A stretch of DNA of 64,000 nucleotides. It comes from Candidatus Latescibacterota bacterium (GTDB taxonomy: Bacteria; Latescibacterota; UBA2968). Below the pieces are notes generated by a model. That model was not told the origin of the DNA. It saw nothing but the letters and a program-made list of their open reading frames with translations, and did no database searches. This document shows positions 1 to 13,000 of this stretch, piece after piece. Position 1 is the stretch's first letter. Each line of letters begins with the position of its first letter. The position numbers and the translations under genes are program-made. Where the stretch lies: the NCBI GenBank assembly GCA_965204375.1, contig OZ241986.1, positions 1 through 64,000 on the forward strand, in the 5' to 3' direction.

Positions 1-1020
1 CAATTCATTGGCGATCTTAAGTTCTTCATAAACGCGATGGAGAAACGCAAACGCCGTTTCCGATGGATGTGCAAAATAACCGCCAAGCCGTTGGTCGTCT
101 ATATTGCGCCAAAAATCGGGTTCCCAGTCTGTAATTCTACGCAAACGGTCATACACATCATTCATTTTGCATAAGTTTGGCGCAAAGGGAAAAAACATAT
201 GCAGGCGTTTAACGGTTTGAATATAGAAGCCGTTGACTGGTACAAATTTTCCTATGAAAGAACAACGCCAACACACTTTAGGTAATTCACTCTTCTTTGT
301 TGCCGTCATCGGGTAAAATGAACCCAAACCGGTGGTGCCTGTCATAAAGGGAAAAATTGTTTGGTTCATATCGTCCATTTTTGAGGATAGGCAACCACAT
401 AAAAAGCAAGGACTTACTTTCCGTCTGGACTTGCGATTGGGTTCTTGAACCTGAATGATCACCTTTGGGCGCACGCGATTGGGTTCATCAATCAACATCC
501 CCGCAGGTGGCCCCGGTTTCAGTTCTTCCAGTTTTAAGAACTGATCCAATCGATCTTGAAGGTAGGCGTAATCGTCAGGTAATTTTCCTGGCGTTTTATC
601 TGCCCATTTAACTTGTCCACCTGCTGGGCGAGGTGCTTTGTCATAAATAAAGGCGGCTATCCCTCGCGCCTTGCGCTTTGGGAAGCGTTCAAACTTTCCA
701 TCTGAATTATAAAAAAAGTTATGAGATGCGACCTCTTCCCATTGTTTTTGGGAAGAGAGGTCGTAATAGTGTCTGATCAAACGATTATAAGCCGTTTCTA
801 ACAAACCTTGCACAGCATCAACTTCACCGGATATCGTCAATTGGTCGGCCTCAAGTTTTACAATCGTTTGAAAATTTGTATATAAATTTTCGTCTTGATC
901 ATCAATACCCTTTTGTGGTTCCTGATGAATATCTCCGATGATACATCTGTAGAGTCCCAGGACACCGGAATCATTCCAGAATTGATTTAAGCGTGGAAAG
1001 GTTACAGTAATGTCACTCAT
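1..1020 (-). CDS. cas8: Type I (I-B-like) Cascade large subunit Cas8 (Cas8a1/Cas8b1-Cst1, CxxC-CxxC type), 3'-truncated by the window edge
   Basis: Not in the ORF track; translated by hand from ATG 1020, open to base 1: MSDITVTFPRLNQFWNDSGVLGLYR...KSCFLCG...FPFMTG...KVCWRCSF. Two CxxC motifs and an N-terminal NxGxxGL-like motif; starts 3 nt after the cas6 stop. Confidence 0.75.
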   Translation of the reverse strand, partial: MSDITVTFPRLNQFWNDSGVLGLYRCIIGDIHQEPQKGIDDQDENLYTNFQTIVKLEADQLTISGEVDAVQGLLETAYNRLIRHYYDLSSQKQWEEVASHNFFYNSDGKFERFPKRKARGIAAFIYDKAPRPAGGQVKWADKTPGKLPDDYAYLQDRLDQFLKLEELKPGPPAGMLIDEPNRVRPKVIIQVQEPNRKSRRKVSPCFLCGCLSSKMDDMNQTIFPFMTGTTGLGSFYPMTATKKSELPKVCWRCSFIGKFVPVNGFYIQTVKRLHMFFPFAPNLCKMNDVYDRLRRITDWEPDFWRNIDDQRLGGYFAHPSETAFAFLHRVYEELKIANEL

Positions 1021-1023
1021 GGA

Positions 1024-1683
1024 TTACTCCTTGATCTGGCGGACAGTGCCGAAACCTCTGGCACTTTGTTTGCCAATACCCCATAATGGTGGAAGTTGAA
1101 AATTAACGGTAAATGTGCCCATAAATCCAGTCAGCGTCACACCAGATTTGATTTGAATGGATTTTGGCTTCTCAATATAGAGATTCGCTTTGAGCCTATC
1201 CGTAATGGTGAGACGAACAGATTTGCATAGTGAAATCAAATTGCCAATCAAAATGCTGCTGAGTAAATCTTGTCGCTTAGCTTTATTGATCAATTTGTTG
1301 TAGCGTTGATGGTTTGCTTGGTTAAGCGCGAGCCAGGGACTCAAAAATTGATATTTCACAGGTGCCTCAGTCGCACCAATTGAAATGGTCTCGGTATTCC
1401 GATTTTGCTCAATCACGTTCAAAGTCTGTCCGTTTAAATTGAGTATATCAATTTCAGGTAGTGCCCGTACGAGAAATGACCCGCTTTCCAATCCCATTAC
1501 ACGCCCCACGCCACCAATTGTTTTATATTGAATCAGCGGATGTTGATATAACAGACCACTTGGTCCATGGTGGTGAAATTCTATCCGATTCTTATACCGC
1601 TGTCCAAAAAAGCCACGCAAGAGCCGTGCGTCATTTTCCTGTAATGACTGATCGCAGCAAAGTGTCAGTGTTGTAAGTTCCAT
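1024..1683 (-). CDS. cas6: CRISPR-associated endoribonuclease Cas6
   Basis: 219 aa with LRGFF, YQHPLIQYK and FLSPWLALNQ motifs and the C-terminal G-rich loop GIGKQSARGFG. Confidence 0.92.
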   Translation of the reverse strand: MELTTLTLCCDQSLQENDARLLRGFFGQRYKNRIEFHHHGPSGLLYQHPLIQYKTIGGVGRVMGLESGSFLVRALPEIDILNLNGQTLNVIEQNRNTETISIGATEAPVKYQFLSPWLALNQANHQRYNKLINKAKRQDLLSSILIGNLISLCKSVRLTITDRLKANLYIEKPKSIQIKSGVTLTGFMGTFTVNFQLPPLWGIGKQSARGFGTVRQIKE

Positions 1684-1769
1684 AGTTATTATCCTTATTT
1701 TTATGGATTGTAGGATGACAAATCAAAAAACCAGAACATATTTCAATCTATATTTTGAGCGGCTAAATG

Positions 1770-1789
1770 TAGTGAAAATTTGTTCACTA
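1770..1789. promoter_or_regulatory. Inverted repeat in the cas6 upstream region (candidate operator)
   Basis: TAGTGAA-N6-TTCACTA, about 90-105 nt upstream of the cas6 start. Confidence 0.35.
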
Positions 1790-1825
1790 TGCAAGATTAA
1801 ATTGCACTTGCGATGCAGCTTTTCT

Positions 1826-1861
1826 ATTTTTTGTTCCCCAGAGGAATTATTAGGAGAGTAA
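1826..1861 (+). pseudogene. 3'-terminal scar of a deleted PIN-family toxin gene
   Basis: Reads IFCSPEELLGE*, resembling the ICTPEELxGE C-terminus of PIN proteins that precede the next small gene family; the stop abuts the next start. Confidence 0.55.
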
Positions 1862-1862
1862 T

Positions 1863-2045
1863 GTGATGAACCACGACTATATCATAAAAGAAGTCCGAAT
1901 GATTCGCGAGCAATTGGCGGCATCACACGGCTATAATGTGCGTGCCTTGTTTGCGGAAGCAAAGAAACGTGAAAAAGAAAGTGGGCGAATGGTCGTTAAA
2001 TTGGCTCCCAGGCGGTTAAAAATTGCTGACGAAAAATCGGTATAA
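1863..2045 (+). CDS. Small antitoxin-like protein, copy A1 (family usually downstream of PIN toxins)
   Basis: 60 aa, DxIIKEVRMIREQLAA..YNVRALF..AKKREKESGR; GGAG SD; near-identical paralog at 2814-2996. Confidence 0.6.
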   Translation: MMNHDYIIKEVRMIREQLAASHGYNVRALFAEAKKREKESGRMVVKLAPRRLKIADEKSV

Positions 2046-2122
2046 CCCGTGCATCGGGATAATGTCCCTGGCCGCTACTTTTTTGTCTCGTGTTTGTACA
2101 TTTCCCCTTTAAGGAATTGCTC

Positions 2123-2323
2123 ATGCTCTGCACTGCTTTAGGCGTTGTGAAAGACGGTAAAATCGAAATTTTGGAACACATTGCATTGCCTGAAGGACAA
2201 AAAGTATTGGTCACCATATTGCCCGACGATGATATGTTTTGGCGGGAAGCCAGCCAGGATACCCTGAAGCAAATTTGGGACAATAATGAGGATGATGTAT
2301 ATGCCCGATTACTCGATGAGTGA
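2123..2323 (+). CDS. DUF104/AF2212-like antitoxin, orphan
   Basis: AAGGA SD then ATG 2123; GVVKDGKIEILEHIALPEGQKVLVTIL and an acidic IWDNNEDDVYARL tail. The overlapping ATG at 2316 reads MSDFV and then runs into the WYL scar. Confidence 0.65.
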   Translation: MLCTALGVVKDGKIEILEHIALPEGQKVLVTILPDDDMFWREASQDTLKQIWDNNEDDVYARLLDE

Positions 2324-2330
2324 TTTCGTT

Positions 2331-2452
2331 TCACATATTCACCTCGCCGCGATCATATCCTTTGCGATTATCTGTCACAGCTCCTCTGATTCTATCACCT
2401 CGCAATTAGCGCCCCAGCCTCTGATCTGGAATTTTAGCACCAGAGTGTGACT
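2331..2452 (-). pseudogene. Decayed duplicate of the WYL gene 3' end
   Basis: Translates SHTLVLKFQIRGWGANCEVIESEEL*QIIAKDMIAAR*, versus intact SHTLEMKPWIRGWGADCEVIEPEDLRKVIAKDMIAAG. Confidence 0.9.
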
Positions 2453-2467
2453 TTTCACAGGTTTGTA

Positions 2468-2493
2468 GTATATTGAATCATTGCTCAATATAC
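2468..2493. promoter_or_regulatory. Palindromic operator upstream of antitoxin C1
   Basis: GTATATTGA-N8-TCAATATAC; conserved at 5194-5223. Confidence 0.6.
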
Positions 2494-2560
2494 GGGATAT
2501 TTATATATTTTTTTCTGAAGCTCAAATCTCCATTCGAACAACCCAAAAACGAGGCGTGCG

Positions 2561-2800
2561 ATGGATTTAAGAGTCCTTGAAGAACGTGTTTGCGAAGTAG
2601 AAAAAAGAGTTCAAGAACTTTTGCGAGAAATTGGGTTCTTAAAAAAGAGTGGTCTGATTGCTCCGCCTCAGTACTCTGCGGTCACTGACGCCGATATGGT
2701 GAGACAGCGCGAAATTGCCCGACGTATGCGCGAAGCACGCGACAAAATGCCTCCACTTGGTATGTCAATAAAAGAGATGGTGGAGGAAGGGCGTTCGTAA
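2561..2800 (+). CDS. VapB-like antitoxin, copy C1 (orphan; PIN partner absent)
   Basis: GAGG SD; ends LGMSIKEMVEEGRS. Paralog of 5289-5504, which is coupled to a PIN toxin. Confidence 0.7.
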   Translation: MDLRVLEERVCEVEKRVQELLREIGFLKKSGLIAPPQYSAVTDADMVRQREIARRMREARDKMPPLGMSIKEMVEEGRS

Positions 2801-2813
2801 ATAGGCGAGTAAT

Positions 2814-2996
2814 GTGATGAACCACGACCATATCATAAAAGAAGTCCGAATGATTCGCGAGCAATTGGCGGCATCACACAGCTATAATGTGCGTGCCCTG
2901 TTTGCGGCAGCAAAGAAACGCCAAAAAGAAAGTGGGCGGAAGGTCGTTAAATTGACTCCCAGGCGTTTAAAAACTGCTGACGAAAAAGCGGTATAA
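2814..2996 (+). CDS. Small antitoxin-like protein, copy A2
   Basis: Near-identical to 1863-2045; preceded only by the ATA GGC GAG TAA (IGE*) toxin-end scar. Confidence 0.6.
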   Translation: MMNHDHIIKEVRMIREQLAASHSYNVRALFAAAKKRQKESGRKVVKLTPRRLKTADEKAV

Positions 2997-3062
2997 CCAA
3001 TGCATACGGCGATACTTGATCTCAGTCAGAAATCCGCTGATTCTAATTCTCGCATACCCATA

Positions 3063-4064
3063 TCAGAGATCTGATTCCATAGATTTTCCCTTCTCATACA
3101 TCTTTCCTGCCGCGATCATATCCTTTGCAATTACCTTTCTCAAATCCTCTGGTTCTATCACTTCGCAATCTGCGCCCCAGCCTCTGATCCACGGTTTCAT
3201 CTCCAGCGTGTGACTTACGGTTAATGTCATGAGACAGCCGCCGTCTGGCAGATCGTCAATGGTATCGACGCAGGGCCAGTCCGATTCCCGCACGCGGTAT
3301 GCCACATTGGGCGAGAAGCGGAGTTTGACGACGATGCGCTCATCGCCACCCATGACGCCCCAGGCTTGCGTCAGATAATCGTAGGGATCGAAATTGTCCC
3401 GAATCTGATATGACGAATCGAGAATTTTGACCCGTTGCACGCGCTCAATTTTGAACTCGCGGATGTCGTGGCGCAGATGGTCATATCCGATCACATAACA
3501 GGCATATCCCACAGGCGATGGCTCGATAAAATACGGGTCAAAAATCCGCTCTGTCACATCACCCTTTTCTGGATTCCAGTAAACTATATACACTTGACGG
3601 CGTGTTGCCCATGCCAGAGTCAGGGTCTCTAACACACCTAAATAATCCGACCATAGCCGCCGCCGATCTGCAGCAGATGCCGTTCGCGTAATGTGTTCGC
3701 CTATTGGTTCAGGCATGGCACTGGCCAGCTTGTTCAGGGCCGATACAGCGTGCGGATTGTGTTTATCACCATAAGCGGCGAGCAATCGCGCTGCCAGATA
3801 AAGGGCCAGTGCTTCGTCCAAATTTAAATGAACTGGAAGCAAATCGAACTGTGCATCTTCAACCAGATGCCAAAGTCGGCCCTCATAATAAACTGGCAGC
3901 CGTCCACTCTCTGACAATTGCACGATATACCGCCGGGCTGTTCGCTCCGATACATTGAGAAGGTCGGCAATTTCCCGAGTCCGGAATCCCTCTGGTCGTT
4001 GCCGCGCGAAAATCTGTACTTGCAACAGCCTTTCATTTTTGGTCTCAGCATCTATAACTGGCAT
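3063..4064 (-). CDS. HTH-WYL-WCX transcriptional regulator (PafB/PafC-like, CRISPR-associated)
   Basis: N-terminal HTH (REIADLLNVSERTARRY), WYL core (RIFDPY...CYVIGYD...REFKIERV) and WCX tail (WIRGWGADCEVIEP). Confidence 0.92.
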   Translation of the reverse strand: MPVIDAETKNERLLQVQIFARQRPEGFRTREIADLLNVSERTARRYIVQLSESGRLPVYYEGRLWHLVEDAQFDLLPVHLNLDEALALYLAARLLAAYGDKHNPHAVSALNKLASAMPEPIGEHITRTASAADRRRLWSDYLGVLETLTLAWATRRQVYIVYWNPEKGDVTERIFDPYFIEPSPVGYACYVIGYDHLRHDIREFKIERVQRVKILDSSYQIRDNFDPYDYLTQAWGVMGGDERIVVKLRFSPNVAYRVRESDWPCVDTIDDLPDGGCLMTLTVSHTLEMKPWIRGWGADCEVIEPEDLRKVIAKDMIAAGKMYEKGKSMESDL

Positions 4065-4100
4065 GGCTTTCTCCGTTTTTCAGGATAATATAGTTTGGAA

Positions 4101-4119
4101 GCGGACAGTTTTTGTCCGC
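4101..4119. promoter_or_regulatory. Perfect palindrome upstream of the WYL gene (probable WYL operator)
   Basis: GCGGACA-N5-TGTCCGC, 37-55 nt upstream of the WYL start. Confidence 0.6.
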
Positions 4120-4219
4120 AAAAGTAAAAAATTTTTCCCGTGCAAAGAAAATCAAAAAAGAGAGCGTTGTAAGGTGGGATTTTGATGACGGCACAGGCAA
4201 AGTAAGAGCCGGAGGACGT

Positions 4220-4256
4220 ATTTCTCCCACCGGCTAATGAGTTTAGAGATTGAAAC
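4220..4256 (+). CRISPR. Single degenerate CRISPR-repeat-like element (not an array)
   Basis: ...CTAATGAGTTTAGAGATTGAAAC: type I-B/I-D-like ATTGAAAC end preceded by a short CTAA/TTAG stem. No second copy seen in the window. Confidence 0.35.
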
Positions 4257-4277
4257 GTTATCAAGTGCGACTAAGAG

Positions 4278-4757
4278 CTATGAGGTGGCAGGGCGATTGT
4301 GCGTGGTTTTGCTTTCTTCTATAGCCTGATCTATTTTGGCGGATAAGTCATCCACGTCTTTGAAAGCTTCTGCTACGCGATCAAAAACGGCAAAATCTTC
4401 TGCTTTCTGGTGGAAAACAGGTATTCCGTCTCGCGTAACAGTTTGCCAGAAAGGGGCTTCATAGTCCTGGTGATATATCCATTCCTCTGCGGTAAGTACG
4501 ATAAGCGAAGGCACAACCTCGGTGCCAATCGCGAGCGTGTATCCGGGTTCAGCAACGGACTTCTTCGTTTTCCAATCTCCTTCGTGGATGATAACGAGAA
4601 CATCCAAATCAGAGTCCTCATTGGATGATCCATGTGCTTTGGAACCAAAAATAATGATATCTTTGATGAGACCCGCAAATTGTGCTTCCAGAGCTTTCTG
4701 GTAAGCTTCAAGCCAAATGCGTTCTTCGCGCGTCAATGTCAAATTTTCTAAAGTCAT
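4278..4757 (-). CDS. Minimal nucleotidyltransferase (MNT/MntA-type antitoxin) with a C-terminal extension; no HEPN partner
   Basis: IFGSKAHGSSNEDSDLDVLV (GS/DxD motif); the MNT fold ends near RDGIPV, followed by about 45 extra aa. Confidence 0.8.
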   Translation of the reverse strand: MTLENLTLTREERIWLEAYQKALEAQFAGLIKDIIIFGSKAHGSSNEDSDLDVLVIIHEGDWKTKKSVAEPGYTLAIGTEVVPSLIVLTAEEWIYHQDYEAPFWQTVTRDGIPVFHQKAEDFAVFDRVAEAFKDVDDLSAKIDQAIEESKTTHNRPATS

Positions 4758-5035
4758 ATCGAGGTGGTTAGAGAGCGATGGGTCATGCCTACGATTTCAC
4801 CGGTGTGGTCATTGATTTCAACGACCTTGAACGAACGGTTCTTCCAGTCTTTTCCCCCGAGGTTGGCTGCCAGGCTCCGCCGTTCCCAGGGCCGAGAGAA
4901 CCCTATGGTTATTTTCCAGGTATTTGCTGTTTCGTCGAATACAACCTCTTCAAGTCCTAAGTCCTGAACTTCCTCGTCGGCAAACAGTTCAGTTATGTAT
5001 TTGTTCGCCGCCCGCACGGCTTCTTTTACGTTCAT
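4754..5035 (-). CDS. Small hypothetical protein of a family usually found upstream of PIN toxins (antitoxin-like)
   Basis: MNVKEAV..A...LGLEEVVFD....WKITIGFSRPW; ATGA overlap with the MNT gene. Confidence 0.55.
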   Translation of the reverse strand: MNVKEAVRAANKYITELFADEEVQDLGLEEVVFDETANTWKITIGFSRPWERRSLAANLGGKDWKNRSFKVVEINDHTGEIVGMTHRSLTTSI

Positions 5036-5193
5036 TTATGCCCCATTTCTACAGTCTTATCATTTTTTTAAAATCGAGGAATTTCGGTACAATCTGCCTA
5101 CTTAAAGAGTAACCAATTTGTACTTTTTAGAAAAGTGTTTCTCATGTGTAAAAAATCAAAACTGAGAGAATGGGGGCGAGAAGTAAGTTATGG

Positions 5194-5223
5194 CTGTATA
5201 TTGAACCATTGCTCAATATACAG
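5194..5223. promoter_or_regulatory. Perfect 11-bp inverted repeat upstream of the vapBC-like pair
   Basis: CTGTATATTGA-N8-TCAATATACAG. Confidence 0.65.
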
Positions 5224-5288
5224 TATGTTTATATATTTATCATTAAAGCTCAAATTTCCATTCGAACGACCCAAAGATGAGGTGTGCG

Positions 5289-5504
5289 ATGGATTTAAGT
5301 GTCCTTGAAAGACGTGTTTGTGAAATAGAAAAAAATGTTCAAGAACTCTTACACGAAATTCGTTTGTTGAAACAAAATGGACAAACGACAGACGCCGATA
5401 TTGCGAGACAGCGCGAAACTGCCCGACGTATGCGCGAAGCACGCGACAAAATGCCACCTCTTGGTATGTCCATAAAAGAAATGGTAGAGGAAGGACGTGA
5501 GTAA
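5289..5504 (+). CDS. VapB-like antitoxin, copy C2
   Basis: GAGGTG SD, ATG 5289; overlaps the PIN gene start; paralog of 2561-2800. Confidence 0.75.
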   Translation: MDLSVLERRVCEIEKNVQELLHEIRLLKQNGQTTDADIARQRETARRMREARDKMPPLGMSIKEMVEEGRE

Positions 5505-5946
5505 ACGCATTGTGATTGACTCCAGCGTTGCTCTCAAATGGCGACTGCGCGATGAAGAAGCTTTGGAACAGGCCGATGTCTTATTAGAGCATTTCTTATC
5601 CCAAGAGCTTGTGTTAATTGTGCCGACGCTCTTTGATTATGAGATTGCCAATGTGCTGAAAGTTGCGATTGTTCGAAAGCGTCTTGCCAAGGAAGAAGCA
5701 GACAAAATTATAGAAGAATTTCAGAACTACGCGTTAAGGCGATATGAGTTTGTTCCATTACAAAAGCAGGCGTTTCAACTGGCTTATGATCACCAACGCT
5801 CTGTTTATGACAGTGCATATCTCGCATTGGCCCAGACAATGGATGTGTGGTTTTATACAGGTGATTTGAAGCTCTTTCGAGGTGTTCAGCAAAAACTGAA
5901 TTTTGTAAAATGGATTGGAGACTATGACCTTGATCTGATCCCCTGA
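5497..5946 (+). CDS. vapC: PIN-domain toxin (VapC family)
   Basis: IVIDSSVALKW, YEIANVL, SVYDSAYLALA and YTGD acidic PIN motifs. Confidence 0.9.
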   Translation: MSKRIVIDSSVALKWRLRDEEALEQADVLLEHFLSQELVLIVPTLFDYEIANVLKVAIVRKRLAKEEADKIIEEFQNYALRRYEFVPLQKQAFQLAYDHQRSVYDSAYLALAQTMDVWFYTGDLKLFRGVQQKLNFVKWIGDYDLDLIP

Positions 5947-5949
5947 TCA

Positions 5950-6028
5950 TTTCCTCATATACATTTCCTGCCGCGATCATATCCTTTGCAATTTCTGCCC
6001 TAAAATCTGCTGATTCCAGCCCCTCGCA
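5950..6028 (-). pseudogene. Second decayed duplicate of the WYL gene 3' end
   Basis: Translates CEGLESADFRAEIAKDMIAAGNVYEE, versus intact CEVIEPEDLRKVIAKDMIAAGKMYEK. Confidence 0.85.
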
Positions 6029-6196
6029 GTGATAACCGCTGCAATCCTATTGATAATCTGTGTTAGACCTCAACCCCCAGTTCTCGGTTTGCGACGCTCT
6101 GGTAGTGGTTCAGCGAGCCATCTATTACTTCTGTCATCGGAACCTGGTGTCCAGCAACTTTTGCTCGGGCGAAGCTGCCGAACCTCCGCGCGGTTT

Positions 6197-7567
6197 TTAA
6201 CTCATCTGGAACCGAAAAGCAAATAGATCCGCGTCCTTGAGGGTGAAGCGTAACCGCACCGGCTGACCTGCCAGCAGGCGCATATCTTCCTTGCTCTCCC
6301 AACGGACTGTACCGTCGATGGCATCACCGAATATCTCAGGGCACTCGTCCAGTGCGAAGCCCGGCTGCGGATGCCCTTCCGTATCCTGGATCTCAACGCG
6401 CACAAATCCCACCGCTGATGTCGAAAAGTTCAATCTCAGACTGTCGCCTGTGAAAATTAACGGACGGGTGACGAACTCGCCGCCAGCGTAGTCTGCGCGG
6501 ACCGACACGAACCCGTCGGTTCGGAGCGAGAATCGACGAATATGGACAGTTGGTAGGCGCCAGTTTTCCATACCGTACAGCGAGAGTTCATCGGGTGACG
6601 TTTGCAAAATACCTCGCTCCATGAACATCCCGCGCTCATGCCAGTTGCCCTCATCGAGCCCGGGGCGGACAAAAGCCTCCATGAAGCTGCGGTCAAAGTG
6701 GCGTCCATCGCGGCTGGACATAAACACGATGTCATTCACGCCTGAACCGTATTTCCACCCCGGAATTGGCTCGCGTTCTGTCACGAAGCGTGACGGAAAC
6801 ATCAAATACACTCCCGGTGCCCGCTCGTAGGGCACGCAGGAATTGGTATAGAGGTGCTCATAGGGCGTCTCGCCGGGGTCAATCAGTTCAAGCGGTGTCC
6901 AACGGCGAAAGTCTTTGGAGGTCGTGCGGCGAATCCAGCGCACCCCGTTTTTGAAGTTGCCCTTACCTGCCACGCCGCGCGTGTACGCGACATATTCCTC
7001 CCGTTCCACGTCCCAAAAGGCGATATTGTGTGAATCAAAGGGTCCATCGGTCAGGATTGGCGCATCCTGCACCAGTCGCCAGCGGAGACCGTCAGGCGAG
7101 ACCAACGCGAGTACATCGCTGGTACGTACAATGGCTTTGTACCGTTCTTCGTCCAACGCGTCGGGATTGCCATCGAGAAACGGCGACATGTTATTACCGG
7201 GTCCCGCCCAGACGAGGTTATTCTCCTTCGAATCTTGAAACTCAATCAGTCCGAGTCGTGGCTTCTCCCAGTGAATGCCGTCGGTGCTTTCAGCGTAGGC
7301 GATGAGCGGGTGACGCGTACCGCGAATCGGCATCTCCTGGTCGCAGCGATACCACGCGCGGAACCGGTCGCCCTCGCGGAACGTGACCATATAGGAAACA
7401 CCGCCCCGTTCCCACGGATGTTCAGCGGAAATTACAACCTCACGACGCACAGGTTCATGCAAGCGCTGTGTGACACCCTGCGCTTCAGCAATCCAGAAAT
7501 TGTCCACGAATAGTTGTCGGTCTGTGCCGATGTGGATAGGTGAACTGTTGTTATCTTGTCGTTCCAT
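6197..7567 (-). CDS. Putative five-bladed beta-propeller glycoside hydrolase (GH32/GH43-like)
   Basis: RQLFVD start, Asp-box repeats (ESTDGIHW, SPDGLRW, SKDFRRW, SRDGRHF) and C-terminal LRTDGFVS; higher GC than the flanks. Confidence 0.65.
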   Translation of the reverse strand: MERQDNNSSPIHIGTDRQLFVDNFWIAEAQGVTQRLHEPVRREVVISAEHPWERGGVSYMVTFREGDRFRAWYRCDQEMPIRGTRHPLIAYAESTDGIHWEKPRLGLIEFQDSKENNLVWAGPGNNMSPFLDGNPDALDEERYKAIVRTSDVLALVSPDGLRWRLVQDAPILTDGPFDSHNIAFWDVEREEYVAYTRGVAGKGNFKNGVRWIRRTTSKDFRRWTPLELIDPGETPYEHLYTNSCVPYERAPGVYLMFPSRFVTEREPIPGWKYGSGVNDIVFMSSRDGRHFDRSFMEAFVRPGLDEGNWHERGMFMERGILQTSPDELSLYGMENWRLPTVHIRRFSLRTDGFVSVRADYAGGEFVTRPLIFTGDSLRLNFSTSAVGFVRVEIQDTEGHPQPGFALDECPEIFGDAIDGTVRWESKEDMRLLAGQPVRLRFTLKDADLFAFRFQMS

Positions 7568-7593
7568 TTTGGTCTCTTTCGTCTACAAAAGAA

Positions 7594-8556
7594 TTAAAAA
7601 AGTGAGAGTTGGACGGGGTCTTGTTCTGTTGTGGGTTGTCTGGCAGGTCTCTCATTGGGATAGCACACGGCTTTGAAGGGGCAGGTGGTACACAGGTGGA
7701 TATTTGTCGTCATTGGGAAGGTGTCTTGCGAAGCGGTGTTTTGCTCGGGATCGTCGAGGAGGGCACGCATTTTCTGGACACTTTCGGTGACAAAGATACG
7801 GGTCTGGTCGAGGTCGTCGGGAGAGAGGTGCAGGGTGCGTTCGGTGTTGGTTTGCAGGTAGATGTCCTGGAGGTGCAGGTCGGATAATGCGACGCCCCAC
7901 TGCGAGGTGGCGTACAGGGCGTACACAGCGAGTTGGTGGCGGTCGGCCTGGCGTTCCCGCCCGGTTTTCCAGTCGAATATATAGACCGATTTGTTGCGGC
8001 GAATTGCGATGTCGAGCACGACCCATATTTTGGTATTGGCAAGGGTAAAATCTGTGAGGTCTTCAATGGTGAGATAGTTTTCGGGGCGGGCAGATTGCAG
8101 GGTGGCGTAGGCATCGGAGGCGAAAAAAGCGTTGAGACTTGTCGAGATGTGATTGGCCGACTTGTTCTGATCGGTTTCTGTAAAGGGTTCGCTGTAATAG
8201 TGTTCAAACAAATTGGTGTATTGAGAGGCTGAATAGCGCCAGAGGTGGTCTTTGGATTCTTGCAGGTGTTGACCGAATAATTTTTGCGCGTAGGTCTCGG
8301 TAGCTGACGGGTGAATAGGGCGTCCCAATTTCAGTGCATTGAGTACGTTGCTAATGGCGTCGTGTACCACGGTACCGACGAGTTGTGGTACTGTGGTTAT
8401 TTTTTTGAGGCGATAGAGTAATTGGGTCTGCGCGTCTGCGTTTTTGTCCCAGCCACCCCAGCTACCGTAGTAGTTGAAGTAGTATTGTCGCCTGCACGAT
8501 TCAAACATGCGATGGCGCGAAGGCGACCAGGAGAATTCGTTTTGGAGTTTGGGCAT
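7594..8556 (-). CDS. PD-(D/E)XK nuclease, RecB/AddB/Cas4-like, with Fe-S cysteines
   Basis: WSPSR...CRRQYY, GTVVH, LD...IFDWKTG, QLAVY, CTTCPFKAVC; directly downstream of aroA. Confidence 0.85.
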   Translation of the reverse strand: MPKLQNEFSWSPSRHRMFESCRRQYYFNYYGSWGGWDKNADAQTQLLYRLKKITTVPQLVGTVVHDAISNVLNALKLGRPIHPSATETYAQKLFGQHLQESKDHLWRYSASQYTNLFEHYYSEPFTETDQNKSANHISTSLNAFFASDAYATLQSARPENYLTIEDLTDFTLANTKIWVVLDIAIRRNKSVYIFDWKTGRERQADRHQLAVYALYATSQWGVALSDLHLQDIYLQTNTERTLHLSPDDLDQTRIFVTESVQKMRALLDDPEQNTASQDTFPMTTNIHLCTTCPFKAVCYPNERPARQPTTEQDPVQLSLF

Positions 8557-8559
8557 GTT

Positions 8560-9840
8560 TCAATAAAGCGCGTTCAAGACATCAAAATACGTCGGAAATG
8601 TTTTGTTGACGCAGTCGGGGTCGTTTATGACAATACCGGGGATTTTCAGTCCGATTAGCGATAGGCTCATCGCCATGCGGTGGTCGTCGTATGTGTCGAG
8701 TGCCGCGGGCTGGATGTGGTCTGCGGGATAAACTGTGAGGCCATCGGCGCGGGTGTCAACGCGCACGCCGAGTTTGTTCAGTTCGGTTTTGAGTGCGGCG
8801 ATGCGGTCGGTTTCGTGGATGCGGAGGACGGCTACGTTGTGTACGCTGATTGGAGCAGAGGCAAACGGGGCCAGGGCGCACAGGGTTGGCACGATGTCGG
8901 GCGTGGCGTTCATGTCGATGTCGAGGCCCGATAGGCGTCCTGTTCCGCGCACTTCAATGCCTTCGGAGTCTTTGCTCACGTCACAGCCCATTTTGGACAG
9001 GATATCGACAAAGCCGATGTCGCCCTGAATGGATTGCGCTGTTAAATTGGGTACGCGCACGCGGCCACGGGTGAGTGCGGCTGCGGCAAAAAAATAGGAG
9101 GCGTTGGATGCATCGGGTTCGATCAGGTAGGTTCGGGAATGATAGCGCTGGCCTGCGCGCACTGTGAAAGAGCGGTAATTATTATTGGTGACTTCAATAC
9201 CGAAGTCGCGCATGACGGCAATGGTGAGGTCGATATACGGTTTGGATACGAGGTCGCCTTTGACGTGGATTTCGACATCGGTTTGGGCGTAGGAAGCCAC
9301 TTGAAGCAGAGCCGTGAAATACTGGCTGCTTTTGCTGCCGTTCATGGTGGTGCGGCCGCCTTTGAGGCCAGAGGCGACGATGAGCGCGGGGGGGCATAGC
9401 CCGTCCTTGCCTTCACAACGCGCGGTTACGCCGAGGGGGGTGAGGCCGTCGAGGAGGTCCTGGATGGGGCGCTCGCGCATCCGTTCGACGCCGTCTATGG
9501 TATAGGTCCCAGCACCCAGGCCGAGATATGCCGCGAGAAAGCGCGCTGAGGTGCCCGAGTTGCCAATGTGGAGTTCTGCCTGATCAGCGGGAATGTGCCC
9601 GCCTGTGCCATAGACGCGGAATGCGGCGTCCGATTCGTTTTCTTCCACGCGAATGCCCAGATCGCGCAGGGCATTTGCCATGTATCGCGTGTCGTCGCTC
9701 ATGAGTGCGTTTTTGAGGTGGCTGACGCCATCAGCAAGTGCAGCAATTAGCAAAACGCGGTTGGTGATGCTTTTAGAACCCGGAATCGCGACATTTGCAT
9801 CGACTGGGGCTGTCAGGAGTTGGATTTCAAGAGTTTTCAT
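8560..9840 (-). CDS. aroA: 3-phosphoshikimate 1-carboxyvinyltransferase
   Basis: PGSKSITNR, GNSGTSAR, SSQY, ETDRI, DDHRMAM, KTFP; likely start ATG 9840. Confidence 0.97.
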   Translation of the reverse strand: MKTLEIQLLTAPVDANVAIPGSKSITNRVLLIAALADGVSHLKNALMSDDTRYMANALRDLGIRVEENESDAAFRVYGTGGHIPADQAELHIGNSGTSARFLAAYLGLGAGTYTIDGVERMRERPIQDLLDGLTPLGVTARCEGKDGLCPPALIVASGLKGGRTTMNGSKSSQYFTALLQVASYAQTDVEIHVKGDLVSKPYIDLTIAVMRDFGIEVTNNNYRSFTVRAGQRYHSRTYLIEPDASNASYFFAAAALTRGRVRVPNLTAQSIQGDIGFVDILSKMGCDVSKDSEGIEVRGTGRLSGLDIDMNATPDIVPTLCALAPFASAPISVHNVAVLRIHETDRIAALKTELNKLGVRVDTRADGLTVYPADHIQPAALDTYDDHRMAMSLSLIGLKIPGIVINDPDCVNKTFPTYFDVLNALY

Positions 9841-10080: not shown

Positions 10081-13000
10081 ATGAAATCCTCTGACTTTGT
10101 CCATTTGCACAGCCACACCATGTACAGCCTGCTCGATGGTGCGTCGAGAATAGAAGATATTGCCCAAGTCGCGGCCGAATGGGGCATGCCTGCGGTTGCG
10201 ATGACCGATCACGGCAATCTTTTTGGCGCTATTGATTTTTATCGCGCGATGAAAGATGTTGGTGTCAATCCGATTATCGGGTGCGAAGTGTATTGCGCGA
10301 TGGGGAGCCGATTTGACAGAAAATCTATGCCGGGTCTCCAGGGCAGTTCAAACCATCTGGTTTTGCTGGTTAAAAATTATACGGGCTATAAAAATCTGAT
10401 TAAGCTGGTGTCTGCGGGGTATCTCGAGGGCTATTATTACAATCCGCGCATAGACAAAGATTTGTTGCGCCAGCATTCGGAAGGGCTGATTTGCCTGTCG
10501 GCGTGCATCGGGGGCGAGATCCCCTATTTGATCGAACGCGAGGGATACAAATCGGCGCAAAAGGCTGTGGAAACATATCTCGATATTTTTGGCGATGATT
10601 ATTATCTGGAGATTCAGCGGCACGGCATTGATAAAGAAAAAAAGGTCAATCCCGGATTGGTCAAGCTGCACAAAGAGATGGGTGTGCCTCTGGTGGCGAC
10701 CAATGATTCGCATTTTACGCGGGCTGAAGACCACGAAGCGCATGCGGCGCTTGTCGCTATTCAGACGGGTAAGACATTGGACGATCCCAAGCGCATGTGT
10801 TATCCCGAAGGCGTGTATTTTAAGTCGGCAGAAGAGATGTACAAGCTGTTTCAGGATATGCCGCACGTTTTGGAACCCACGCTCGAGATTGCCGAAAAAT
10901 GTAATCTGGAGATTTCATTTGATGAATACCGCGCGCCCGATTTCCCTTTGCCAGAGAGGTATGATGCGGCCAGCGATTATCTCGGCGATCTGGCGCGCGC
11001 GGGGATGGAGGCGCGGTGCAAGCAGGTGACCTCTGAGCATGAGGAACGCCTGAAGTTTGAGTTGGACGTGATCAATCAGACGGGATATCCGGGCTATTTT
11101 TTGATTTTGCACGATTTGATGCAGTTTTCCAATGCCTCAGATATCCGAGCAGGCGCGCGTGGGTCTGCTGTGAGTAGTCTGGTGGCTTACGCACTGGGCA
11201 TAACGGCTGTGGATCCCATCGAATACGGGCTGGTGTTTGAGCGATTTTTGAATCCCGAGCGGATTTCGCCGCCCGATATCGATCTCGATATCGCTGACCG
11301 CGACCGCGAGCAGGTCATCGATTACGTGGTGGATAAATACGGGCGCGACAATGTGTGTCAGGTCATTACGTTTGGTACCATGGGTGCGAAGGGCGTGATT
11401 CGCGATGTGGGACGGGTGTTGGACCGGCCATTTGCAGAAGTCGATAGAATTTCAAAACTGGTGCCCGCAGAATTGAAGATGACGCTCGATAAAGCACTCG
11501 ACCAGGTGCCCGAGTTGCGTCAGATTGCCGAAGATGGGGACATGGGGCAAAAGATGATCGGCATTGGCAAGCAACTCGAAGGTCTGGCGCGCCATGCGTC
11601 GATTCACGCGGCTGCGGTGGTGATTACGCCCGAGCCTGTGACCGAGTTTATGCCCGTTTACAAAGCGCCCAAAGGCGGCGAGGTGATGACGCAGTACAAT
11701 ATGCATCACGTGGAAGATCTGGGCTTTTTGAAGATGGATTTTTTGGGGCTTCGCAATCTGACGGTGATTGACGATGCCGTGAAGATGGTGAAGGAAAATT
11801 ACGGCGTGGATGTGGATGTGGATAACTTGCCTCTGGACGATGAGGAGACCTATCGCCTGTTTGGCCGGGGCGATACGACCGGGGTGTTCCAGTTTGAAAG
11901 CGCGGGGATGAGGGGCTATTTGCAACAACTGAAGCCGGATACGATTGGCGATATTATTGCGATGAACGCGCTTTATCGCCCGGGGCCGATGCAGTACATT
12001 CCCAATTACGTTGACCGCAAGCACGGGCGGGAAGAAGTGACGTATGACGACGAGAAAATGCGCCCGGCTCTGGAAGAGACGTACGGCATTATTACCTACC
12101 AGGAACAGGTACAACGACTGTGCCGCGACCTGGCCGGATTTACACTTGCCAAAGCCGATGGCATCCGCAAAGCCATGGGGAAGAAGTTGGCCGATGTAAT
12201 GGAGCGGTACCGGCTCGAATTTTTAGAAGGTGCCATGACCAATGGTGTTGAAAAAACGGTTGCGCAACAGATATGGCGAGACATCGAGGTTTTCTCGGGC
12301 TATGGATTCAACAAGGCGCACAGTGCGGGCTATTCGATGGTGGCTTACCAGTGCGCGTATCTCAAGGCGCATTATCCGGCTGAATTTATGGCGGCGAACC
12401 TCAACAGTGAAATTGGCAATATCGAGCGCCTGGTCGTTTTGATTGAAGAATGCCGGCGGATGGATCTGGATGTATTGCCGCCAGATGTAAATGAAGGGCA
12501 GAGCGATTTTGTGGCGGCTAAAAATGAGATTCGAATGGGTATGGCTGCCATTCGCAATGTGGGGCGCAGCGCGGTTCAAGCGATTGTTGCGGCGCGTGAA
12601 GCAGATGACCCTTTTGAGTCGCTATTTGATTTTTGCGACCGCGTGGATTCTCAGGCTGTGAACAGGCGGTGTATCGAAAGTCTGATTAAAGCCGGTGCTT
12701 ATGATTGCGTGCCCGGGCATCGCGCGCAGTTGCTCGAAGCCTTAGACCGCGCACTGGAGATGGCGCAATCTGTACAGATGGACCGCGCACGCGGGCAAAT
12801 TTCCATGTTTGAAATGGTCGAGATGCAAACGCAGGTGGTGAACGACCAATCGTTGCCCGATGTTGAGGAATGGACTGAGCGCGAACGCCTCGCACACGAA
12901 AAAGATATGCTGGGCTTTTATCTTTCGGGGCATCCGCTGGAACGCTACAGAATCGATTTGGTGGAAATGGGTATGAGATCGGTAAATGATCTGGAGGGAT

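Follow-up and report, generated by a model that had tools for sequence, protein, structure and literature searches.

The antitoxins of toxin–antitoxin (TA) modules include known families such as MazE, PemI and VapB, and a ccd anti-addiction case is reportedly known from Erwinia. Although antitoxins without a partner are widespread, their lost neighbor and their present significance can rarely be named. Anti-addiction, cross-talk and regulation have been proposed as their roles (PMC7192599, PMC6478593), and a chromosomal ccdA gene in E. coli relieved the cost of CRISPR-based immunity against a ccdAB plasmid (PMC6478593). Hot spots of defence islands have been described next to WYL regulators (PMC9122601), and the available sections of a 2025 review on the coupling of TA and CRISPR systems (PMC12737573) contain no passage on orphan or anti-addiction antitoxins beside cas genes. 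Here we describe an accumulation of TA genes in Candidatus Latescibacterota bacterium (lineage UBA2968, assembly GCA_965204375.1). The analysed window of 64,000 nucleotides (nt) represents the first 64 kb of a single 6.34-Mb contig (OZ241986.1), and the segment under study (1750-6030) is located beside a type I-B cas operon and flanks the WYL regulator gene of the latter. It harbors six intact antitoxin-type genes from five families that apparently lost their toxins, as well as one intact pair; the lost toxin is assignable for each of the six orphans and the deletions are readable base by base. Our preferred explanation, which carries about half of our confidence, is that the segment represents a hot spot of TA cassettes in which toxins are deleted first and antitoxins are kept by selection, most likely for anti-addiction without the help of CRISPR.

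Orphan antitoxin-type genes and their partners

A preliminary description of the segment had listed six antitoxin-like open reading frames (ORFs) from five families; all six are open at their positions and partners were found at other loci. The comparison is based on the WYL orthologue, which was detected in 13 of 20 further genomes from the genus and for which stretches of up to 18 kb were retrieved (one cut to 11.7 kb by a contig end), so that 14 loci including the window could be compared; gene contexts were read within 61 genomes. A, AF66, B and U93 yielded nothing above threshold in Pfam, NCBIfam and PADLOC, and the ESM Atlas contains only unnamed clusters for A and U93. The antitoxin-type identity of these small ORFs is assigned because of conserved partner genes elsewhere. 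The predicted type of the partner toxin is assigned for each orphan from other loci or, for B1, from its paralogous pair, and the view that these ORFs are TA partners that lost their toxins is borne out by partner genes in sister genomes and other phyla.

Family A occurs twice on the plus strand, as the 59/60-amino acid (aa) gene A1 (1866-2045; ORF from 1863) and its paralogue A2 (2817-2996; ORF from 2814; 86.7% aa identity). An intact 157-aa PIN gene (PF01850, 24.4 bits, cut-off 23.6) ends 4 nt before the A gene of the sister genome G006. Four full-length paralogues of this PIN178 type are present in the genome under study, each followed by a small gene, two of which are assigned to family A by a hidden Markov model (HMM); a fifth A gene follows a different PIN-like ORF. 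Among the A loci in other genomes of the class, the PIN178-family HMM detected a full-length PIN gene upstream in 7/29 cases (one with a 144-nt gap) and a C-terminal remnant in 3/29. The remaining 19/29 loci gave no PIN match with this HMM, and nine of these 19 lack any same-strand ORF of at least 80 aa within 120 nt on either side. Another example is plasmid pTs485 of Candidatus Thiodictyon syntrophicum (L080:1201-1879), on which a PIN gene annotated as VapC (47% identity) has an overlapping 68-aa A-like ORF behind it that is absent from the gene table of the plasmid. The PIN-before-A order at these other loci indicates that A is the downstream partner of a toxin-first PIN module, and we infer that it represents the antitoxin of the PIN178 type. 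No A-family gene directly behind a PIN gene was found in the window, where only PIN remnants are left. A profile search retrieved 6125 cluster representatives of family A at E<=0.001, and a large protein database lists 49 A clusters. The AlphaFold2 model of A predicts a hairpin of two helices with a disordered tail (predicted local distance difference test score, pLDDT, 72). Some A-family proteins carry two A domains. At two loci from another genus (L009 and L010 of G041 and G037), an MNT-like nucleotidyltransferase ORF, read by eye, precedes an A-family gene, which may represent another stack of antitoxin-type genes.

The 66-aa antitoxin-type gene AF66 (2123-2323, plus strand) resembles the AF2212-like family PF01954 below the threshold (13.6 vs. 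21.6 bits, E 0.093). In G007 and G012 it precedes and overlaps the start of an intact PemK/MazF gene of 112-115 aa (PemK_toxin, 35.5 bits, cut-off 23.1), and the 112-aa MazF of G007 begins with MYMPDYLMNDIV. An intact PemK/MazF gene beside AF66 was not found in the window, where ten codons remain.

B1 (2561-2800, plus strand) encodes a 79-aa protein and has no toxin gene behind it. It is 72% identical to its paralogue B2 (5289-5504, plus strand), with 33 of the last 38 residues shared. B2 is the antitoxin of the sole intact pair, whose existence had been noticed previously; it overlaps by 8 nt the start of PIN149 (5497-5946, plus strand), an intact gene for a predicted VapC-type toxin (PF01850, 30.4 bits, cut-off 23.6). 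No orthologue of PIN149 above 33% identity was detected in the 20 other genomes of the genus, and family B was not found in 40 genomes searched outside the genus. A large database contains only 29 B proteins at E<=0.01 (67-100% identity), among which 57-aa forms are most numerous. The antitoxin status of family B is derived from the single B2/PIN149 pair.

The fourth family is an MNT-like nucleotidyltransferase (4278-4757, minus strand; PF01909, 26.6 bits, cut-off 21) that stays below the cut-off of the NCBIfam MntA equivalog (26.2 vs. 60 bits). Its equivalent in G007 comprises 115 aa and is followed by a HEPN gene (PF05168, 52.8 bits). The homology of the window gene (residues 1-115) ends exactly at the stop of this short form, and a 45-aa extension takes the place of HEPN. 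A tblastn search with the G007 HEPN protein gave nothing credible in the window or the genome. This HEPN gene (L054:9746-10150), the only one found at the locus, is devoid of about 20 N-terminal residues of the domain, and a short out-of-frame ORF (MNQENIVSEFNAA and stop) begins at the nucleotidyltransferase stop, which points to a frameshift. In G012 no more than about 13 codons of a G007-type HEPN start are left.

The 93-aa gene U93 (4754-5035, minus strand) precedes a gene for a PIN-fold protein elsewhere. It has 208 homologues in a large database, none of them with a Pfam domain and, among 120 listed, none with a name beyond “hypothetical protein”; a genome collection yielded 439 relatives. 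The invariant motif is GLEE...W.xTxGFSRPW. A partner family of about 150 aa is encoded directly downstream in 58 of the 80 loci kept. This partner has no Pfam match, and a sequence search of the PDB returned nothing below E 0.79. Its model (pLDDT 93.5) matched PIN/VapC structures in Foldseek, with 2fe1 at the top (E 9.7e-5; template modelling score up to 0.72) and PAE2754, AF0591, FitB and VapCs of Mycobacterium tuberculosis and Shigella among the further matches, so that its PIN fold was recognised by the fold search and not by sequence. The U93 plus PIN-fold pair (L088:2501-3242 and 57 other loci among L087-L160) was observed in Dehalococcoidia, Nitrospirales, Alphaproteobacteria, Binatia and others, and it looks like an undescribed VapBC-like family. 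An HMM of the partner, with E values up to 1, found no match in the genome under study or in the 13 retrieved WYL loci of the genus.

Deletion scars and repeated borders

Three scars document where toxin genes were lost. The first precedes A1 and consists of the decayed 3' end of a VapC-like PIN178-type gene (1752-1862, plus strand), which was recognised by alignment to the intact gene of G006 and terminates with IFCSPEELLGE and a stop codon. The preliminary description had correctly assigned this terminus to a PIN protein but limited the scar to positions 1826-1861. The real remnant measures about 110 nt and exhibits many substitutions, two internal deletions of 14 nt and no open frame; it ends with FSIFCSPEELLGE and stop, compared with PPIICTPEELLGE and stop in the intact PIN of G006. 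G020 shares the same decayed remnant. The alignment identifies this scar as an old pseudogene rather than a relic of 11 codons.

The second scar (2801-2812, plus strand) had been proposed to be a PIN end, and it indeed comprises the last three codons and the stop of a PIN178-type gene (IGE and stop). The borders of repeats D4 and D1 meet at 2801/2802. The homology with the B2-PIN149 cassette extends to a single base beyond the stop codon of B, a stretch that corresponds to the former first three codons of a PIN149-type gene, and from 2801/2802 onward the homology with the A cassette starts with the last three PIN178-type codons. The junction would be accounted for by one deletion that connected a B-PIN with a PIN-A cassette. 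The same junction sequence is present in G002, and the same B-A order in G013.

The third scar represents the first ten codons of a deleted mazF/pemK gene (MYMPDYSMSD; 2295-2324, plus strand). Comparison with the MazF of G007 supports the earlier recognition of a MazF/PemK-like start, but the remnant begins at 2295 and the ATG at 2316, which had been taken for the start, is internal. The remnant runs into the sequence that follows the MazF stop in G007, namely, the end of the convergent WYL gene.

Repeats are a conspicuous property of the whole segment. The 60-aa A gene together with its ribosome-binding region is present twice (1851-2054 and 2802-3005; 204 nt, 93% nt identity), as is a unit of a 26-nt palindrome plus gene B (2468-2801 and 5196-5505; 83-90%). 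The 3'-terminal 75-124 nt of the WYL gene exist in three copies, of which 3093-3216 belongs to the real gene. The other two are minus-strand remnants, one at 2330-2453 (codons ~284-319; repeats D3 and D5; tblastn 72% over 36 aa) and one at 5954-6028 (repeat D3; tblastn at 5906-6037). The preliminary description had mentioned neither these triple WYL ends nor the two palindromes, the 45-aa extension of the nucleotidyltransferase or the missing partner of U93. Among the ORFs read in window 1-9000, where an integron-like cassette system was considered, no integrase was recognised, although no family search was aimed at integrases.

The palindromes are located upstream of B1 (2468-2493) and B2 (5196-5221), at promoter-like sites. 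The first overlaps the -10 element of such a site (2447-2474) and is a likely operator, and upstream sequence containing the palindrome also precedes the PIN178-A genes of G006, as read from a translated frame. Another promoter-like site was noted at 1715-1742. These elements bear on the possibility that the orphans are domesticated regulators, DNA-binding or other, that act for example on the palindromic operators or on WYL/cas expression. The antitoxin genes of the plus strand converge on the WYL gene, and control of WYL or cas is conceivable because the orphans are transcribed toward the WYL 3' end; moreover, U93 is strongly conserved without a toxin partner and a regulatory role of orphan antitoxins has been proposed (PMC7192599). 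However, no DNA-binding domain was detected in A, AF66, B and U93 with Pfam, NCBIfam and PADLOC, family A is modelled as a helical hairpin that ends in a disordered tail, and no operator was found besides the B palindrome. We consider this explanation distinctly unlikely.

Mosaic structure of the locus within the genus

A comparison of antitoxin content between related genomes had been suggested, and variation is evident from the 14 WYL loci. AF66 is present and intact in eight of them, two of which have an intact MazF. A is present in 7/14 loci, with an intact PIN in front of it in one. B or a piece of B occurs in 8/14, in full length only in the window, to which PIN149 is also restricted (1/14; the other genomes hold paralogues of <=33% identity). 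The nucleotidyltransferase is found in full or as residues 1-115 in 5/14 loci, is split around an uncharacterised 447-aa ORF in G020 and is reduced to fragments in two. HEPN occurs in 1/14 and U93 in 6/14 loci, the latter being kept at 95-97% identity across the genus. Comparison of orphan with toxin-linked alleles showed identities of 88% for A and 82-85% for AF66.

Chimeric genes are also present. G018, G004, G010 and G002 share one compound junction that creates an in-frame 57-aa ORF composed of nine codons from MazF, part of the palindrome and 45 codons from the C-terminal end of B. The loci of this chimera are L048:8308-8478, L049, L051 and L053, with omega values (ratio of non-synonymous to synonymous substitution rates) of mostly 0.13-0.30. 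Another example is an 84-aa ORF of G020 (L007:1501-1752) in which the N-terminus of A is joined to the C-terminus of B.

A Cas3-like gene is located within a few kb on the WYL 3'-end side in 13/13 related loci. It belongs to the same I-B type in G002 and G012 and is 20-31% identical elsewhere, which indicates another cas type at those loci. The TA block is thus constant at the WYL-cas junction, whereas its content and the cas module vary. Across the genus this junction represents a mosaic TA hot spot that contains antitoxins of chimeric composition and several copies of the WYL 3' end. Parts of the locus are covered by RNA-library contigs from four metatranscriptome runs of three studies, whose presence in a library does not show transcription: X1 contains cas6b-A-WYL, X3 contains B-A-WYL, and both X2 and X4 contain B2-PIN149 with an identity of 99-100%, with positions 2010-2583 uncovered in all four runs. 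One library contig of a related strain contains a single A between cas6b and WYL (joint 1855 to 2807), and another is devoid of the B2-PIN149 block (joint 5070 to 6063).

Purifying selection after toxin loss

Maximum-likelihood omega values were calculated with IQ-TREE (GY+F1X4) and compared with omega=1 by likelihood-ratio tests; pairwise values were calculated according to Nei-Gojobori. Omega=1 was rejected in 5/5 sets (range 0.09-0.38). The values are 0.33 for the four junction-sharing copies of AF66 (p 0.0012), 0.38 for its six toxin-less copies (p 2.3e-4), 0.17 for five A copies without intact PIN (p 1.2e-5), 0.27 for four nucleotidyltransferases without HEPN (p 4.4e-6) and 0.09 for six copies of U93 (p 5.6e-15). 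Pairwise estimates amount to 0.05-0.54 for A, 0.08-0.46 for AF66, 0.13-0.72 for the 57-aa chimera, 0.04-0.17 for U93 and 0.10-0.21 for the nucleotidyltransferase (one pair 0.50); B1 and B2 differ with an omega of 0.27, or 0.17 across the C-terminal 38 codons. For comparison, the neighboring gene 6197-7567 has 0.16-0.19 and WYL 0.03. The earlier expectation that the orphans do not evolve neutrally is thereby supported, also for the four copies of AF66 whose toxin deletion is inherited in common: at dS 0.20-0.44 their omega is 0.12-0.33, and the number of non-synonymous changes is below expectation in 6/6 pairs (binomial p 2.6e-5 to 0.019; the pairs are not independent).

Because omega ranges from 0.09 to 0.38 and omega=1 was rejected, plain neutral decay of the orphans is not supported, and the conserved antitoxins probably still do something on their own. 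The corresponding scenario would regard them as young, functionless leftovers whose low omega stems from a toxin-bearing past or from gene conversion. Toxin-first loss is the expected route of such a decay, the locus is highly recombinogenic, and A1 and A2 differ with an omega of 0.54. Orphan antitoxins are furthermore abundant in other bacteria, with degrading pairs as one proposed source (PMC7192599). Nevertheless, this scenario is unlikely in view of the constraint on AF66 at considerable dS in the four genomes with one junction, the integrity of AF66 in 8/8 loci as opposed to that of MazF in 2/8, and the omega of 0.09 for U93, whose partner was not found in the genome or the 13 loci of the genus. 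The PIN remnant, by contrast, has internal deletions and no open frame.

Orphans and toxins elsewhere in the genome

Three further A-like orphans are located in the same genome, at 3383590-3383756, 5074779 and 5394918, so that toxin loss is not unique to the WYL-cas locus. The first belongs to a region (G000:C1:3383391-3383756) in which a PIN178-family gene is cut to its first 31 and last 27 codons, with the A-like gene behind it kept; it represents a second case of toxin-first decay, far from cas genes. The second (G000:C1:5074779-5075388) is an A-family gene between ccmE-like and ccmF-like genes (named by eye) that overlaps a downstream 148-aa ORF. The concern that orphans might be equally dense throughout the genome, raised in the preliminary description, is justified insofar as these three exist, but 19 PIN and 4 PemK matches elsewhere in the genome are in open frames, which shows that toxin loss is not a genome-wide habit.

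These matches are also the starting point for an explanation by cross-neutralisation, according to which the orphans would counteract paralogous toxins that are encoded at other places of this genome. B1, with its shared C-terminal residues, could act on PIN149 at a distance of 2.7 kb, and the 19 PIN and 4 PemK proteins provide potential targets. We nevertheless regard this explanation as highly improbable: identities of the closest MazF paralogues do not exceed 32-33%, the four full-length PIN178 paralogues are followed by an A gene of their own in at least two cases and by a small ORF of their own in the other two, the family of the U93 PIN-fold partner is without a match in the genome, and genomes in which the B-derived chimera is retained are devoid of PIN149 orthologues.

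Relationship to CRISPR-Cas and mobile elements

The preliminary description had suggested that the stack represents a selected antitoxin library that works together with type I CRISPR-Cas by removing post-segregational killing upon the clearance of TA-carrying plasmids and phages. The stack adjoins cas genes in 13/13 related loci, its antitoxins are under purifying selection, and the ccdA principle has been shown in E. coli (PMC6478593). However, the 58 spacers gave no match to toxin genes or to the retrieved loci, apart from which three chance matches of 17-18 nt were found in the genome. MazF and the A-linked PIN178 family have no relative on IMG/VR contigs, and their plasmid relatives are only 32-47% identical. 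The same antitoxin families are orphaned away from cas genes, and the adjacency is also explained by hot spots of defence islands beside WYL regulators (PMC9122601). No functional link to CRISPR clearance was found, and we consider such a library very unlikely; cooperation with CRISPR-Cas has a conserved adjacency but no support in these data.

In a broader version, a selected collection of antidotes at the WYL-cas junction would allow CRISPR-Cas or homologous replacement to remove TA-bearing DNA at no cost, which we judge to be decidedly improbable. If true, the collection would parallel in nature what was engineered with ccdA, and TA cassettes would travel with swappable cas/WYL segments and mobile elements. 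An origin of the cassettes from mobile elements found no support, with no IMG/VR relatives of MazF and PIN178 and only distant plasmid matches. Close cognate toxins were seen solely at the same chromosomal locus in sister species.

A proposed hot spot of TA cassettes with toxin-first deletion

We propose that the segment is a recombination hot spot for TA cassettes at the junction of the WYL gene and the type I cas operon, where five cassette families would have been stacked through exchanges between this and related strains. In gene order, these are a VapC-like PIN and A, AF66 and MazF, B and PIN, MNT and HEPN, and U93 and a PIN-fold protein. Decay would proceed in the only viable direction, i.e., toxins are deleted, often precisely between short repeats, and antitoxins stay. 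Selection keeps the antitoxin genes after toxin loss, most likely because cognate toxin cassettes still circulate at the same locus in the population and the resident antitoxin would neutralise toxins gained or lost when a segment is swapped, hence acting in anti-addiction. We infer that toxin binding and neutralisation are retained by the orphan proteins and constitute the benefit under selection. Anti-addiction at the same locus appears most likely because the cognate toxins were found exactly there in sister species, because those toxins adjoin antitoxin alleles that are 82-88% identical to the orphans, and because antitoxins that are 71% identical to each other were shown to inhibit one toxin (PMC7192599).

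Several observations weigh against this scenario. U93 is the most conserved orphan, yet its partner was not found (E up to 1) in the genome or the 13 loci of the genus; it fits a new function better than anti-addiction and may have acquired a different role. The omega of 0.54 between A1 and A2 is based on 12 differences and one pair of chimeras reaches 0.72; for such short genes from related genomes omega estimates are noisy, and gene conversion or recombination with toxin-linked alleles could mimic constraint. The RNA-library contigs show the presence of the sequences and not their expression. Neither viral contigs nor plasmids yielded a close cognate toxin of MazF or A-linked PIN type. A genes that stand alone are frequent at a great distance from cas genes, and their retention may thus reflect a role that is independent of the toxin.

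The proposed scenario of a hot spot with anti-addiction has the advantage that the gene pairs from sister genomes are defined, which makes anti-addiction and the interplay with CRISPR directly testable. The analysis moreover revealed two TA-like families that are not covered by the copies of Pfam, NCBIfam and PADLOC used here, namely, PIN-then-A (60 aa) and U93-then-PIN-fold (93 aa).

Genomic neighborhood

The window starts with the N-terminal 340 codons of cas8b (1-1020, minus strand; PADLOC Cas8b, E 1e-12), which runs off the start of window and contig and has a 79% identical orthologue in G002 and G012. It is preceded by cas6b (1024-1683, minus strand; Pfam Cas6b_N and Cas6b_C; PADLOC Cas6, 3e-59), the first gene of the type I-B operon. 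The end of the contig harbors cas7 (cut by the contig end), cas5, cas3, a DUF3800-like gene, cas1, cas2, cas4 and a CRISPR array of 59 repeats; it follows from this location of the remaining cas system that the TA stack does adjoin a type I-B operon, whose gene set (cas6b, cas8b, cas7, cas5, cas3, cas1, cas2 and cas4 plus array) is present. Both cas8b and cas7 (contig-end stretch L070:18311-18850) are cut by contig ends, and compared with the operon of G002 the assembly is devoid of about 1.1 kb that would encode the C-terminus of cas8b and the N-terminus of cas7, which may reflect either an assembly gap or a real loss. The DUF3800-like gene (L070:14069-15004; PADLOC DUF3800_VII, 8e-16) is inserted between cas3 and cas1, and a 24-codon Cas1-like fragment (OWN 10217-10288) is located between cas3 and the DUF3800-like gene.

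The cas-associated regulator with HTH, WYL and WCX domains (3063-4064, minus strand; Pfam WCX, WYL and HTH_11; PADLOC WYL, 1.7e-34) also matches the N-terminal third of the PADLOC Cas3c profile (1.2e-82). On its other side, the hot spot is bordered by a gene for a 456-aa protein (6197-7567) that has no Pfam match and is 94-96% conserved in four sister genomes; it is followed by a PD-(D/E)XK/Cas4-like nuclease gene (7594-8556). In G002 a ThsB-type TIR gene (PF08937, 97.8 bits; L003:268-762) is located between cas6b and the TA block, which indicates that the WYL-cas junction also takes up other defence genes.

Comparison with known systems

The B2/PIN149 pair has the layout of type II VapBC modules, with a small upstream gene that overlaps the PIN gene and a palindrome at the promoter, and the same gene order is found for U93 and its PIN-fold partner in other phyla. 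A difference from described VapBC systems is that neither Pfam nor NCBIfam has a matching model for B, U93 or the partner of U93, and B2 does not belong to a known VapB, AbrB, RHH or Phd family according to Pfam, NCBIfam and PADLOC. The PIN178/A pair is toxin-first, and only one module of the window retains its toxin. MazEF/PemIK modules come closest to AF66, which overlaps a gene with a PemK_toxin domain (35.5 bits) in G007 and G012, but AF66 is no recognised MazE or PemI, and MazF is down to 10 codons in the window. The nucleotidyltransferase followed by HEPN in G007 corresponds to the type VII HEPN-MNT system, and the MNT domain PF01909 is present in the window; the differences are the absence of HEPN, the 45-aa extension in its place and the missed cut-off of the MntA equivalog.

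Unpaired antitoxins in a former TA context are shared with the orphan antitoxins and anti-addiction modules of a Klebsiella survey (PMC7192599) and the ccdA study (PMC6478593). The difference here is that six orphans of five families stand within 3.2 kb, that their lost toxins are identified and that purifying selection persists after the loss; anti-addiction may be their function. CreTA, a CRISPR-regulated RNA TA system that guards cas genes (PMC9458426), is likewise an addiction-type element beside cas genes. The modules described here differ in being protein TA modules that are mostly toxin-less, and a CreTA-like element with a creA resembling the CRISPR repeat was not found in window 1-9000 at up to 12/37 mismatches. 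The adjacency of an HTH-WYL-WCX regulator and defence genes finally agrees with the WYL regulators beside defence islands (PMC9122601), with the difference that the 3' end of the regulator gene is present three times here and borders the TA cassettes.

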